Notes: generated by a model not told the origin, from the sequence alone. A stretch of 64,000 nt of DNA from an uncultured Enterobacteriaceae bacterium (GCA_964510855.1 CAZEDB010000001.1:12220-76219); one strand, 5' to 3'; counted from the stretch's first letter, positions 47,814-53,691 are shown. Translations and numbers: made by a program.

Positions 47814-49235
47814 TTGACTCCTCTTTGTAAAAAAAGGATACTGAATGGTAGGATGAGTTCAACCCAGCCAGATGACGCACCCCCTCCCCCCGAGGCTGAA
47901 GGTGACCTCGAGGCTATAGGGCATGAAGATCAGGCGACTGAAAGCATCCGGCCGCGACTCCCCTTTTGGAAACGCATTGGGGGCGAGGGGCTGGTTATCT
48001 CCGTGGTTCTTCACGGCATTTTATTAGTCATCTTTGCAGTTTGGGTTATCGCTACCATCACGGATACCGCCACGACCGATCCTGATACGTTTGCCACCGG
48101 ACAAGGGGGAGGAGCAAAAGGAGAAAAGGCGCGAGTATTCGAGCACAAGATGCAGCCACGTAATGCTCAAAATCTTGCCCGCAATACCGCGCGTATAACT
48201 TCAAAATCTTCAACCGCTTCGGTAGCCTTACCTGATCTTCCGACCACCGCCACGCCTTCGTTAATGTCAGGGCTGACGGGTGGCGGTGCCTCGAAGGGTT
48301 TTGGTGGCGGCTCGGGTGGCGGCATCGGTGCTGGCAAGGGCATCGGTGTCGGTAGCGGTAGAAATTTTGTGGGCATGTTTGGCGGCGGTTTTAAACGCGC
48401 CAACGCCCTAGAGGGGACCCTTTATGATTTAAAACAAGACCCCAAAGGTAAACAGCTGGTTAAGGACCGACCCGAGCGCATTGGTGAGATGCGCAGGGCT
48501 TTTGACGTCCTCGACCGCGGATGGAAGTCAGCTAAGGCCCACCTAGATAAAACCTACAAGCAAGCTGAGAAGAAACTCTATACCGCAAATATGCTCATCC
48601 ATCCGCTTGATGCGGGCGAGGCAACTAAAGCCTTTGACTGTGAAAAGGAGATTCAGGCTCCGGGGTGGCTGGCTTATTATGAAGGCTGGTTTGCGGTTCC
48701 TGAATCAGGCGATTACCGGTTTCATGGCTTTGCAGACGACATGATGGCGGTAGCGGTGGACGGTAACACGGTGCTTTCCGCTTTCTGGCCAGGCCAAGGC
48801 AATGGGGGTATCATTACCTTTCGCTCGGGCTGGGAGCCTAAAGATGCTCACAAGGTTGATGGTAGAATGTTCCGCAGTCCGAAGATGATTGGCCATCTCG
48901 GCGCTCGTTACAAAGGGGGCTGGATGCCGCTGCGCAAAGGACAGGCCTATTTTATCCAGATCGCGATTTCAGAATCTCATGGCGGTATTTTTTCTTCCGA
49001 ACTCTTAATTGAGAAAAAAGGCGTCACATACACTAAGGGTAAACTAGAGGACGTTATCCCCTACTTCATGCTCGAGCCTATGAGTCCAGAAGAAATTAAG
49101 CTTAAACTGGGTTGGAAAATGCCTCGCGGTTGGGGATACGGCCCTGCAACGCCTTGGCATATGGACGGGGCCACGGAGGGTCCTTCCTTCGGCGTAGAGA
49201 TTAATAATGTTACCCCGCGCCGGGGCTCACGCTAA
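47814..49235 (+). CDS. Paralog 1 of a single-pass membrane protein family (TonB-like TM helix, Gly-rich linker, PA14-like C-terminal domain)
   Basis: Has the conserved module RPRLPFWKRIGGEGLVISVVLHGILL...GGGSGGGIGAGKG, then WLAYYEGWFAVPESGDYRFHGFADDMMAVAVDGN. The start is uncertain (TTG at 47814 or ATG at 47853). Confidence 0.7.
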   Translation: MTPLCKKRILNGRMSSTQPDDAPPPPEAEGDLEAIGHEDQATESIRPRLPFWKRIGGEGLVISVVLHGILLVIFAVWVIATITDTATTDPDTFATGQGGGAKGEKARVFEHKMQPRNAQNLARNTARITSKSSTASVALPDLPTTATPSLMSGLTGGGASKGFGGGSGGGIGAGKGIGVGSGRNFVGMFGGGFKRANALEGTLYDLKQDPKGKQLVKDRPERIGEMRRAFDVLDRGWKSAKAHLDKTYKQAEKKLYTANMLIHPLDAGEATKAFDCEKEIQAPGWLAYYEGWFAVPESGDYRFHGFADDMMAVAVDGNTVLSAFWPGQGNGGIITFRSGWEPKDAHKVDGRMFRSPKMIGHLGARYKGGWMPLRKGQAYFIQIAISESHGGIFSSELLIEKKGVTYTKGKLEDVIPYFMLEPMSPEEIKLKLGWKMPRGWGYGPATPWHMDGATEGPSFGVEINNVTPRRGSR

Positions 49236-49282
49236 AGCAGTTACGCTGGCTTTTAGCGGGTGAGTTAACTTATTGTATCTGG

Positions 49283-50665
49283 GTGAGTCAGTTACCCACT
49301 GAACCCCCAGCAGAAGAACCCCTGCTACCAAGTGAGGGTGAAGTAGTTGTTGGTGATCAAGAAACTTTAACTGACGCATCGCTCCGCCCGAGACTCCCTT
49401 TTTGGAAACGCATCGGGGGTGAGGGTTTAGTCATCTCAGTCATTTTGCATGCTATTCTCCTCATCGTTTTTGCGGTTTGGGTTATTGCTACCATCACAGA
49501 TACCGCGACTACCGATCCTGACACTTTTGCTACTGGATCGGGCGGAGGTGCTAAAGGAGCCCAGGCCAAAATTTTTGAGCACAAGATGCAGCCCCGGAAT
49601 GCTCAAAACTTGGCGCGTAATGCCTCTCGAATAACCACTAAGTCTGCCACTGCCTCGGTAGCTTTGCCTGATTTACCTACTACGGCGACGCCTTCGCTAA
49701 TGTCGGGCATGACCGGCGGAGGATCCTCAAAAGGGTTTGGCGGCGGCTCGGGTGGCGGGATTGGCGCCGGCAAAGGCGTGGGTGTAGGCAATAGCCGAAA
49801 TTTTGTCGGCCTCTTCGGAGGAAAATTTGGGGGCGCTGGTTTAACCGGCAACTTCTATGACTTAAAGCAAACGTCTTCCCAGAAAGCTACTTTAATGATG
49901 GGACCCGATCCTGAAAATATTGGGCCGCAAAATCTTCCCGCAGTTAAAGCCTACACCAAGGAAGTGCATGAGTTTGTTCGTAATGGCTGGAGTGAGAGTC
50001 GGTTAAGAAAGTTTTTCCGGGCGCCAGAGCAATTGATGGCTACGCAATTTTTCATTCCGCGCACCTCGGCGAGTGCAGCTCCAAAGGCCTTCGGAGTGGA
50101 AGGCCTAGTAAAACCTTCACGCTGGATTGCACACTACAAGGGTCGTATCCGAGCTCCTGTAGATGGTAAATTTCGCTTCGTTGGTTTTGGCGACGACTTA
50201 CTCGTAGTTCGGTGGGATAATAAAGTCGCGCTCGATGCTGGTTATGACGCCCCTTCAGTTGATGCAGTTAATGTAGTTCACGGAGATGATCCCTTTCGTG
50301 AATACACGGAGTTTGCTGGTAAGCCTAAAATTCCATTTTTTGACTACCACGGCATTGTGCCGAATTCAAACGCAGCACGCCTAAGAGCAGGCCCCTGGAT
50401 TGATGTGCGTGCAGGTATGGATTATTCCATGGAAGTCATCATTGGAGAAACTCCTGGGGGCGGGTTCTTCTCGCTTCTTGGGATTGAGGTATCGACTGGA
50501 AAGCGCGAAGGGGGGCAATTTTTAGGTGAGCGCCGAACCAGGCTCTTTAAAATTGGCTCGGGCGAGCTCCCTCCTGAAATTGCTAATGGTGCGGGTACGG
50601 GTTGGGAAATGGACCCCGGCGATTGGACCTTCCAGCCAAGCGGTGGTGCTAAGGTGACTCGTTAA
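49283..50665 (+). CDS. Paralog 2 of the same family
   Basis: The same N-module, with about 19 substitutions in ~145 aa versus paralog 1 by hand alignment. PA14-like segment WIAHYKGRIRAPVDGKFRFVGFGDDLLVVRWDNK. Confidence 0.75.
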   Translation: MSQLPTEPPAEEPLLPSEGEVVVGDQETLTDASLRPRLPFWKRIGGEGLVISVILHAILLIVFAVWVIATITDTATTDPDTFATGSGGGAKGAQAKIFEHKMQPRNAQNLARNASRITTKSATASVALPDLPTTATPSLMSGMTGGGSSKGFGGGSGGGIGAGKGVGVGNSRNFVGLFGGKFGGAGLTGNFYDLKQTSSQKATLMMGPDPENIGPQNLPAVKAYTKEVHEFVRNGWSESRLRKFFRAPEQLMATQFFIPRTSASAAPKAFGVEGLVKPSRWIAHYKGRIRAPVDGKFRFVGFGDDLLVVRWDNKVALDAGYDAPSVDAVNVVHGDDPFREYTEFAGKPKIPFFDYHGIVPNSNAARLRAGPWIDVRAGMDYSMEVIIGETPGGGFFSLLGIEVSTGKREGGQFLGERRTRLFKIGSGELPPEIANGAGTGWEMDPGDWTFQPSGGAKVTR

Positions 50666-52272: not shown

Positions 52273-52314
52273 TTCTCTATTAGTAACTAAGCCTTAAACA
52301 AAGGAAAGCAACGA

Positions 52315-53691
52315 GTGAGCCGCAAGGGTTGGGCTGGATTTATAGAGGGAAAGCCTTATTTTAAAGGCGTGGTGTCACCCCAACCTCCATCTGATTCAGA
52401 GCCTCTAGAGCCCTTGCCTCCCGAAGGTGAAGAGCAGGCCGTAGTCTATGAGGATGAACCTACTGGCGAACCCTTAAGGCCACGTCTTCCTTTCTGGAAA
52501 CGCATCGGTGGTGAAGGTTTAGTTATCTCCGTAGTTTTACACGCCATTCTGTTAGTGATTTTTGCCGTATGGGTCATTGCCACCATCACGGACACTGCGA
52601 CCACTGACCCTGACACCTTTGCCACCGGTTCAGGGGGCGGTGCAAAAGGTGAGCGGGCAAAAATCTTTGAGCATAAAATGCAGCCCAAAAACGCCCAACA
52701 ATTAGCGCGTAATACGAGCCGCATCACCTCTAAGTCAGCTACGGCATCGGTCGCTTTGCCTGATTTACCCACCACCTCAACTCCCTCATTAATGTCGGGG
52801 ATGACGGGGGGTGGCTCCTCAAAGGGTTTTGGCGGTGGCTCGGGTGGCGGGATTGGTGCGGGTAAAGGTGTGGGGGTTGGCAATTCGCGAAATTTTGTTG
52901 GACTCTTTGGGGCTAAGTTTGGTGCGAATGGATTGTCGGGCACCTTTTACGATATCAAACAAACCAAAGAACGTAAGGCTACCAATGCTCAGCCCTATCC
53001 TGCTGGTATGGAGCCTTATCGCGATGTCATAAGAAGCTTTTTGAGCAGCAACTGGAATACCAACAAATTTGACCGCTACTTCCGCGCCCCTGAGACCTTA
53101 ATGATGAGTCAGCTTTTTATTCCAGGGCGATCTGCCAGTGCAGCCCCGGTAGCCTTCGGCGTTGAAAAAGAGGTTCAACCTTCACGCTGGTTGGTGCACT
53201 ACAAAGGTACGGTGCGCGCCCCTCAGGCTGGGACGTTTCGTTTTGTAGGTTCAGGTGATGACTGGCTGATTGTGCGCTGGAATCGTAAAATTGCCTTTGA
53301 TGAAGGCTATGAAACCTTCGAAGTAAAAGGGGGGAAGTACACCGATTTCAGTCAGGTAGTTGATGTACAGGTCCCTATTGATCGTACGCCTGGTGGTCGT
53401 CATTATCTCAAATGTGGACCGTGGATTACGGTTAGAAAAGGGGATGCTATACCCATAGAGATACTTATGGGAGAGGGACCAGGAGGGAGTTTTGATGTCT
53501 ACCTCGCCATCGAAGTCGCCAAGCCCAAGAAAGAAAAAGGTGAGTTTGTCGGTGAAGGCTCGCTGAAGCTTTTTCGCACCACCAATGACCCCGTGCCAGA
53601 GGAAATTCAAAATCCTGGCCGCAATTTAACCATCGATATGCAAGCCGAGGGTTGGGTTTTTGAAGCGACCAAAACAACAACGAGTAGATAA
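52315..53691 (+). CDS. Paralog 3 of the same family
   Basis: N-module with about 10 substitutions in ~145 aa versus paralog 2. WLVHYKGTVRAPQAGTFRFVGSGDDWLIVRWNRK. The start is uncertain. Confidence 0.75.
   Translation: MSRKGWAGFIEGKPYFKGVVSPQPPSDSEPLEPLPPEGEEQAVVYEDEPTGEPLRPRLPFWKRIGGEGLVISVVLHAILLVIFAVWVIATITDTATTDPDTFATGSGGGAKGERAKIFEHKMQPKNAQQLARNTSRITSKSATASVALPDLPTTSTPSLMSGMTGGGSSKGFGGGSGGGIGAGKGVGVGNSRNFVGLFGAKFGANGLSGTFYDIKQTKERKATNAQPYPAGMEPYRDVIRSFLSSNWNTNKFDRYFRAPETLMMSQLFIPGRSASAAPVAFGVEKEVQPSRWLVHYKGTVRAPQAGTFRFVGSGDDWLIVRWNRKIAFDEGYETFEVKGGKYTDFSQVVDVQVPIDRTPGGRHYLKCGPWITVRKGDAIPIEILMGEGPGGSFDVYLAIEVAKPKKEKGEFVGEGSLKLFRTTNDPVPEEIQNPGRNLTIDMQAEGWVFEATKTTTSR

Follow-up and report, generated by a model that had tools for sequence, protein, structure and literature searches.

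The locus and the common plan of its genes

The window analysed here, that is, the whole stretch of 64,000 nucleotides at CAZEDB010000001.1:12220-76219 (GCA_964510855.1), contains three neighbouring genes that belong to a freshwater Verrucomicrobium of the class Opitutia, and whose products, single-pass membrane proteins with a common anchor and dissimilar heads, are referred to below as paralogues 1, 2 and 3. They were singled out in an original prediction made from the sequence alone, and both the listing of open reading frames (ORFs) and the protein alignment agree with it, in that the three frames are open at 47814-49235, 49283-50665 and 52315-53691, all on the + strand, and can be aligned from end to end, with an overall identity of 47-49%. 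Only the start of the first at TTG 47814 is probably wrong; ATG 47853 is to be preferred, because it corresponds to the product length of the nearest orthologue cluster (P0121, 460 aa, 99% identity). The orthologue cluster of paralogue 2 (P0060) also has 460 aa, with a head 99.6% identical, and the exact protein of paralogue 3 is present on five other contigs.

The three genes follow one plan (Table 1): a variable acidic leader, 23-38% identical between paralogues, a basic patch, one transmembrane (TM) helix, a conserved stretch of 65 residues, a Gly-rich linker and a divergent head of ~270 residues. The helix has the basic residues on its N-side, and the AlphaFold2 models, made for paralogues 1 and 2 with alignments of 38 and 49 sequences, consist of a confident TM helix, a segment from residue 74 to ~185 in which the predicted local distance difference test (pLDDT) is below 50, and a folded head. 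The arrangement originally described, an N-in single-pass anchor with a conserved stalk and diversified heads, is thus the one found in the alignment and the models.

All three proteins end in Arg (last codons 49230-49232, 50660-50662 and 53686-53688), as do nearly all of the 38 aligned PA14-type family members and a 524-aa relative with a von Willebrand A (VWA)-like domain. Two antisense ORFs (49603-49851 and 52446-52943, both on the - strand) were rejected as genes, being artefacts that arise where the Gly-rich linker and the conserved module are read in reverse complement as Pro-rich peptides, and scans of the locus for promoters and terminators did no better than on shuffled sequence.

Table 1. 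Positions in the window of the three genes and of the parts of their products
Feature	Residues	Position	Strand	Evidence and remarks
Paralogue 1, gene	1-460	47853..49235	+	460 aa from ATG 47853; ORF also open from TTG 47814
Paralogue 1, acidic, Pro-rich cytoplasmic leader	1-32	47853..47948	+	pLDDT <50; no domain match
Paralogue 1, basic patch RPRLPFWKR and TM helix with invariant Ser50-x3-His54	33-73	47949..48071	+	AlphaFold2 helix 44-73, pLDDT up to 91
Paralogue 1, conserved juxtamembrane stretch	74-138	48072..48266	+	88-91% identity between paralogues; modelled disordered; collinear with motor-adjacent transducers
Paralogue 1, Gly-rich linker	139-185	48267..48407	+	Multiple Gly invariant in 38 sequences; pLDDT 31-40
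Paralogue 1, head: helical hairpin and PA14-fold beta-sandwich	186-460	48408..49232	+	pLDDT ~90; Foldseek
Paralogue 2, gene	1-460	49283..50665	+	460 aa; 47 bp downstream of paralogue 1
Paralogue 2, basic patch and TM helix with Ser52-x3-His56	35-75	49385..49507	+	AlphaFold2 helix 46-75; invariant residues
Paralogue 2, conserved juxtamembrane stretch and Gly-rich linker	76-186	49508..49840	+	Alignment, AlphaFold2 model, paralogue identities
Paralogue 2, PA14-fold head	187-460	49841..50662	+	pLDDT ~90; Foldseek; no Pfam match
Paralogue 3, gene	1-458	52315..53691	+	458 aa; queG-like and coaC-like genes (- strand) between paralogues 2 and 3
Paralogue 3, basic patch and TM helix with Ser72-x3-His76	55-95	52477..52599	+	Alignment to paralogues 1 and 2
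Paralogue 3, conserved juxtamembrane stretch and Gly-rich linker	96-206	52600..52932	+	Alignment, paralogue identities
Paralogue 3, PA14-type head	207-458	52933..53688	+	By sequence: 45% identity to paralogue 2 head, weak GLEYA match

The heads

Between paralogues the heads share only 27-45% identity, the highest value being that of paralogue 3 against paralogue 2, and all have the core W..Y.G....P..G.FRF.G..DD, which does not vary among 38-49 members of the family. Both modelled heads reach a pLDDT of ~90. Compared with the PDB by Foldseek, the head of paralogue 1 gave 6m8m as its best match (E 2.5e-6; template modelling score relative to the target, TMt, 0.58) and 45 matches at E<=1e-3, essentially all of them PA14/GLEYA domains or PA14-containing proteins, while that of paralogue 2 gave 6x8a (E 6.7e-7, TMt 0.55-0.58) and 41 matches at the same threshold, all of this kind. 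Over both heads, the top matches have a probability of 1.00 and TMt of 0.55-0.59, and the list includes the PA14 domain of Marinomonas MpIBP, Candida Epa1/6/9, Flo1/5, Cea1, PA14 modules of GH3 and GH31 enzymes, and the PA14 sensors of RsgI proteins. As modelled, the heads of paralogues 1 and 2 are PA14/GLEYA beta-sandwiches, as had been suspected from the core motif, and this fold would suggest that they bind glycans.

Sequence profiles come near the same families: paralogue 1 scores 20.0 bits against PA14 (PF07691), where the gathering threshold is 24, and paralogue 3 scores 16.8 against GLEYA (PF10528; threshold 26.2, E 0.0087); the head of paralogue 2 has no Pfam match, and several relatives carry a precomputed match to PF07691. 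Searches of PDB sequences with one single protein and two profiles returned just low-complexity noise from the Gly-rich linker and a marginal match to Epa9 (E 0.5). In FRF.G..DD, an invariant Asp is followed by a nearly invariant one (>=90%), a pair that presumably aligns with the DcisD calcium site of Flo5 and Epa1, which it resembles in sequence.

The N-terminal module

In contrast to the heads, the anchor and stalk form a near-identical block, referred to here as the N-module, which takes in RPRLPFWKR, the TM helix, the stretch TDTATTDPDTFATG...SLMSG and the linker GGG.SKGFGGGSGGGIGAGKG, and whose amino acid identity is 88-91% over 108 codons. Its consensus is RPRLPFWKRIGGEGLVISV(V/I)LH.ILL..FAVWVIATITDTATTDPDTFATG.GGGAKG...FEHKMQP.NAQ.LARN..RIT.KS.TASVALPDLPTT.TPSLMSG, followed by GGG.SKGFGGGSGGGIGAGKG.GVG, and within residues 74-138 of paralogue 1 the elements F-x-T-G-x-GGG-xx-G, ARVFEHKMQPRN (a candidate motor box), RITSKS and ALPDLP can be distinguished. 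The invariant positions in 38 family sequences (paralogue 1 numbering from ATG 47853) are W39, G43, G44, S50 and H54, in or before the helix, and F80, G83, G85-87 and G90 after it. The Ser-x3-His of the helix is invariant in 38-49 family members and conserved at >=90% in 106 distant relatives.

The ~113 residues that follow the helix are the most conserved part of the protein and yet are modelled as disordered, a combination typical of a segment that would fold only on a partner. Other identities for these parts were considered and rejected: a pilin-like helix, as the G/FxxxE prepilin site is missing, and a collagen-like linker, as its Gly residues follow no fixed three-residue register.

Pfam and NCBIfam offer no model that matches the N-module, be it in the three window proteins or in the 106 distant relatives scanned, nor do the window proteins match TonB_C, TonB_2 or TolA in these databases at E<=1; it is, then, a defined and searchable module absent from both collections. 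To this extent the original view that it could be placed in no family stands; it can nonetheless be placed by means of its Ser-x3-His helix and its homologues in motor operons.

Relatives within motor operons

Among 40 sequences (409 kb in total), only L033, retrieved by a metagenome scan with the PA14-type family, had tblastn matches to ExbB/TolQ and ExbD/TolR. It carries on one strand an operon for two TPR proteins (1000 and 299 aa), a MotA_ExbB protein (PF01618, E 3e-25), two ExbD proteins (E 2e-15 and 7e-18) and proteins of 362 and 413 aa. The former of these last two combines a Ser-x3-His helix and N-module with a VWA domain, and the latter (12-1253) has the same anchor with a PA14-type head and is 36% identical to paralogue 2 over 400 aa (E 6e-49); a further PA14-type gene lies upstream in divergent orientation. 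The named relatives of the L033 motor protein are from Chthoniobacter or Chthoniobacterales. Two other loci are similar: in L040, MotA_ExbB-ExbD-ExbD is followed by an N-module joined to VWA, and in L041 the same three genes are followed by a 536-aa protein (10975-12585) composed of a cytoplasmic SAM domain, an N-module and a PA14-type head, 32% identical to the head of paralogue 3 over 158 aa (E 3e-15). Heads homologous to those of the window are thus found in two motor-operon genes (L033 and L041).

The homology extends to the anchor. A hidden Markov model (HMM) of the window-type N-module, searched against 3597 ORFs, matches all four motor-adjacent genes from model position 3 to 106 of 108 (E 6e-7 to 3e-10), and the elements W, (K/R)I, L..S...H, TF..G, EH(K/Q), RI(T/V), (A/S)L..(M/L)P, a Gly run and F(F/V)G are collinear in both sets, which also have in common a conserved (F/M/L)(E/Q)H(K/R)(V/I/M) core. 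The co-occurrence with ExbB/ExbD/TolQR genes, for which the original prediction had proposed a check, is found in TolQ-TolR-TolR operons of other Verrucomicrobiota, and not in the window or in the Opitutia loci examined.

On the cytoplasmic side, the SAM domain ahead of the L041 helix, together with extensions elsewhere, hints at regulation or oligomerisation; the relatives P0234, P0243 and P0267 have cytoplasmic extensions of 150-330 residues. A PEGA-domain protein is encoded at 514-2001 (+) of the window and another at 13929-14984 of L040, a few genes downstream of the motor operon, probably by coincidence. A weak ExbB match in L007 was discarded, since it is the Gly-rich linker itself and not a motor gene.

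Distribution of the family and evolution of the module

The nearest named relatives of the window proteins are hypothetical proteins from metagenome-assembled genomes of Opitutia, Opitutales and Puniceicoccales (Verrucomicrobiota), none of which bears a functional name in any source, and at 90% identity at least 848 clusters are matched by paralogue 3 and at least 555 by paralogue 1. Three adjacent paralogues occur in L004, L020 and L022; L016 has four, one plus three, around the same queG-coaC pair, and the Puniceicoccales-like contig L015 has a single copy. A contig scan with the three-paralogue alignment, whose patterns were too specific, returned only 10 loci. A profile of the 108-residue module, compared with 1.84 billion cluster representatives, found 341 proteins (50%-identity clusters) at E<=1e-3 and 92 at E<=1e-10, varied in length and in the position of the module. 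Among the 106 of these that were scanned with Pfam, 9 have PA14, 4-6 a VWA-type domain, one a squalene-cyclase-like repeat and one a SAM domain. Judged by these domain combinations, the N-module is a portable anchor cassette for putative extracytoplasmic binding heads of various kinds.

How the copies within one cell have stayed alike can be read from their synonymous sites. In the window the DNA of the block is only 72-76% identical despite the identity of its proteins, the synonymous sites are saturated (proportion of synonymous differences, pS, 0.67-0.84), and the ratio of nonsynonymous to synonymous rates (dN/dS) is <=0.05 where it could be computed. Because these sites are saturated while the protein is near-identical, the copies must be old and their similarity maintained by purifying selection, which leads us to reject recent duplication or conversion, as well as chance, as its cause. 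The separated copy of L016 behaves as the window copies do, with saturated pS and a protein still ~90% identical. Sister genomes differ in this respect, as was seen by comparing the paralogue spans of L004 (7221-11320), L020 (9998-14094), L022 (8453-12687), L016 (6968-14181) and L005 (5260-8838). Across genomes the heads define orthologue groups (that of paralogue 1 has an identity of 0.87 with L005|5260, 0.73 with L016|6968 and 0.56 with L004|7221), whereas the N-modules cluster by genome, with identities of 0.82-1.00 within a genome and 0.48-0.84 between genomes. In L004, L020, L022, L005 and the three adjacent copies of L016, the pS of the module is 0.07-0.47 beside ancient heads that are 30-48% identical, and this low value next to old heads indicates a gene conversion that appears to be limited to about the first 180 codons. 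Both routes, conversion and purifying selection, preserve the likeness of the anchors in one cell, in keeping with one docking partner for all: anchors that remain alike while heads diverge are what would be expected if all copies must fit the same one.

The surrounding window

The locus lies among housekeeping genes and no transposase is present in the window, as stated originally; the neighbours include IMPDH, menC-like, kdsA, PolX, gmk, queG, coaC, an HNH protein, a RodZ-like helix-turn-helix protein, an M50 protease, a ROK kinase, dnaE and feoB. Immediately upstream, a 176-aa multi-pass membrane protein with no family match is encoded at 47196-47726 (-), divergently from paralogue 1, and the same gene (180 aa) stands between gmk and a paralogue in L016, so that the adjacency is conserved; the gmk ORF beside it probably extends too far at the 5' end, in the part that overlaps the multi-pass gene. 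Further away, the region 18000-33500 has a lower GC content (0.48-0.51 vs ~0.54) and codes for a GT10 fucosyltransferase, a GT1 glycosyltransferase, two DegT-type aminotransferases and a DUF4838 protein, being probably a surface-polysaccharide biosynthesis island. The gene at 37811-38479 (-) codes for a 222-aa protein that bears at its C-terminus a PEP-CTERM sorting signal (E 3e-8); the organism should accordingly possess an exosortase system.

Proposed mechanism and alternative explanations

The architecture, the PA14 fold, the homology of the whole N-module to motor-operon genes and the strong constraint on the module are what we regard as established. On this basis, the three proteins are probably force transducers of the TolA/TonB type, in which the usual C-terminal domain has been replaced by a PA14 lectin-type beta-sandwich, and it would seem that all three are periplasmic transducers coupled to one shared motor, encoded elsewhere in the genome. 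Each protein would sit in the inner membrane, N-in, by means of the helix bearing Ser-x3-His, which would bind the rim of a TolQ-like pentamer, while the stretch of the (F/M)EH(K) type would pair, as a motor-box strand, with a TolR-like dimer. The ~113 residues made up of the Gly turn, the candidate motor box and the Gly-rich linker would be long enough to cross the periplasm and hold out the PA14 head. The near-identical N-modules would dock the three paralogues onto one proton-driven motor of the TolQ-TolR-TolR type, so that proton flux or motor rotation could pull on whatever the heads hold at or under the outer membrane, most likely a carbohydrate-bearing ligand, and three heads would mean three specificities on a single motor.

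Several observations weigh against this proposal. Only the Ser-His half of the SHLS motif is present, since the positions at His+7 and His+11, Leu and Ser in the full motif, are occupied in the N-module helix by Phe/Ala and Val; the monomer models of paralogues 1 and 2 show no beta-strand at the candidate motor box; the N-module profile, run against all PDB chain sequences, which are expected to include those of TonB and TolA from the entries for motor complexes, found nothing relevant; and among the 106 relatives scanned with Pfam no match to TonB_C was reported. As to synteny, tblastn with Escherichia coli and L033 motor queries found no MotA/ExbB/TolQ or ExbD/TolR gene in the window, nor did tblastn find a motor gene in ~35 other family-bearing loci besides L033, mostly of the Opitutia type, with which the Pfam-annotated contexts agree. 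In all, motor genes beside the family were looked for without success in the window, in L001-L032 and L034-L039, and in five further contexts of distant relatives (L017, L018, L019, L042 and L043). L040 and L041 were retrieved with the motor as query, which makes them biased replicates, the three loci linked to a motor all belong to one Chthoniobacterales-like order, and in Opitutae the VWA-like relatives adjoin ATPase genes of the type II secretion system (T2SS) or type IV pilus (T4P) kind instead. Finally, the class of VWA-headed transducers with which the comparison is made is itself a computational proposal, with no phenotype reported (PMC12204202).

Three alternatives were considered. The proteins could be passive, motor-independent anchors, that is, periplasmic lectins or envelope spacers tethered to the inner membrane and binding peptidoglycan, envelope glycan or incoming polysaccharide, with an N-module that binds some other common partner or serves for membrane insertion or oligomerisation. 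The PA14 folds are best known as static sugar-binding modules, no motor gene is near any Opitutia copy examined, and no similarity of the module to TonB or TolA can be detected in sequence; nevertheless, we hold this explanation to be unlikely, as an invariant polar Ser-x3-His within a single-pass helix, together with the full-length homology of the module to genes of TolQ-TolR-TolR operons, is hard to explain by it. The missing linkage is moreover weak counter-evidence, because tonB of E. coli is itself unlinked to exbBD and unlinked tonB genes are common.

A T4P or T2SS-like accessory, in which heads (VWA, PA14) for adhesion or substrate binding would be fastened by the N-module to an assembly platform, comparable to the role of PilY1- and TadG-type VWA proteins in pili, is suggested by five Opitutae loci (L010, L011 at 4234-7016, L013 at 5938-8721, L030 and L031), where genes with an N-module and a VWA-like domain (DxSxS) lie directly downstream of T2SSE-PilT-T2SSE(MshEN)-T2SSF. 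The pair encodes proteins of 524-687 aa and ~360 aa where it is complete, its second gene being cut off in L010 and L030; in L011, L013 and L031, whose flanks are long enough, a 620-aa TPR gene follows further on, on the opposite strand. These loci may link the transducer family to such a machine, but their proteins are 82-100% identical and amount to about one independent observation, the copies with PA14-type heads (window, L004, L015, L016, L020, L022 and others) have no such neighbours, and the helix lacks a prepilin cleavage motif and bears a Ser-x3-His that is not a pilin feature, all of which makes an accessory of this kind quite improbable for the window proteins. Still less credible is a transmembrane polysaccharide sensor of the RsgI type, in which an extracytoplasmic PA14 domain senses glycan and the N-terminus signals to a sigma factor or other regulator. 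Its topology (N-in, single pass, PA14 outside) is the same, and the RsgI sensor domains 6qdi and 6qe7 are among the Foldseek matches; however, the leader has only 32-54 residues, acidic, Pro-rich and divergent between paralogues, with no Pfam match, no sigma factor gene is adjacent, and the conserved part is periplasmic, not cytoplasmic. For a role in substrate sensing, one of those originally suggested, the short and variable leader thus offers no support.

If the window proteins are motor-coupled transducers, it might be speculated, though we consider it doubtful, that they act as a winch: a single TolQ-TolR-TolR motor would power a number of exchangeable transducers, whose heads, PA14 here and VWA or others in relatives, would grip glycans, be they polysaccharide chains on their way in or glycoconjugates of the envelope, and draw these through the periplasm or along it. 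Proton motors of the Ton/Tol type would then have a third job, and polysaccharide-degrading Verrucomicrobia an energised route of uptake or envelope remodelling distinct from TonB-dependent transporters, in which three or four heads would set the substrate range while gene conversion would keep every anchor fit for the single motor.

Comparison with known systems

To our knowledge, TonB and TolA were long the sole known routes by which an ExbB/TolQ-type motor passes on to the outer envelope the proton-motive energy of the inner membrane. In 2025 a third class, made up of force transducers that have VWA heads and are driven by a motor, was proposed from genome mining as a predicted class in bacteria of the Planctomycetes-Verrucomicrobia-Chlamydiae (PVC) group and others (Williams-Jones et al., 2025; PMC12204202). 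Its design consists of an SHLS helix, a disordered linker and a head other than that of TonB, with TPR-tolQ-tolR-tolR synteny, and by AlphaFold3 the conserved His comes to lie at the motor's TolA/TonB site (PMC12204202). By its gene content, the operon of L033 and L040 is of the type described there. The original statement that the system was undescribed is therefore too strong.

The window proteins are like this class in their TM helix with an SHLS-type His, followed by a disordered segment, in a domain II of ~100 residues, and in a head unrelated to TonB_C; in their occurrence in Verrucomicrobia, with relatives in operons of TPR, tolQ-like, two tolR-like and transducer genes; and in that VWA-headed proteins carry the N-module of the window, the likeness to the reference proteins from Tichowtungia being one of description and not of sequence alignment. 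They differ in their PA14 head, in genes unlinked to a motor, with no TPR/tolQ-like/tolR-like synteny in the window or the Opitutia loci examined, and in being organised as three or four paralogues whose anchor modules evolve in concert.

In TonB and TolA themselves, cryo-electron microscopy has placed Ser16/His20 and Ser18/His22, respectively, in contact with TM1 of ExbB or TolQ, the His being essential, and Ser-His is the structurally conserved and essential half of SHLS, Leu-Ser being less conserved (PMC12215075). With these the window proteins share an N-in single-pass anchor, a non-globular segment spanning the periplasm and a C-terminal binding domain, and a single motor could serve a number of paralogues, as is the case with multiple TonBs. 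The Ser-x3-His helices of TolA, IISAVLHVILFAALIW (PMC12215075), and of the window proteins, VISVVLHGILLVIFAVW, are alike by eye, although too short for statistics. Unlike TonB and TolA, the window proteins have no TonB_C or TolA_C domain, the part that in that family binds its partner through beta-strand addition, lack the Leu and Ser of SHLS, show no detectable sequence homology, and have a linker rich in Gly instead of Pro-rich or helical.

As regards the heads, the PA14/GLEYA lectins (MpIBP, Epa, Flo) have the same fold (Foldseek E ~1e-6) and the core G.(Y/F)RF.G..DD...V, but they are borne on secreted or cell-surface adhesins, whereas the window head is predicted to be in the periplasm on an inner-membrane anchor, has an additional helical hairpin before the sandwich, and gives sequence scores below the Pfam threshold. 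The RsgI anti-sigma factors of Clostridium/Acetivibrio, which are among the structural matches, are also single-pass N-in proteins with an extracytoplasmic PA14; the window proteins differ from them in having neither an RsgI_N domain nor a sigma partner gene, and in that their conserved module is periplasmic.

PA14 is absent from the text of the paper on VWA transducers (PMC12204202), and nothing relevant was found in the literature on PA14 with TonB/ExbB/ExbD or with Verrucomicrobia. The design of the anchor having been published in 2025, what appear to be new here are the PA14-headed form and the paralogue triplet. In other words, the anchor of this recently proposed class also carries lectin-type heads of the PA14 kind, which raises the hypothesis that major polysaccharide degraders of fresh and marine waters handle glycans in their periplasm with an input of energy.

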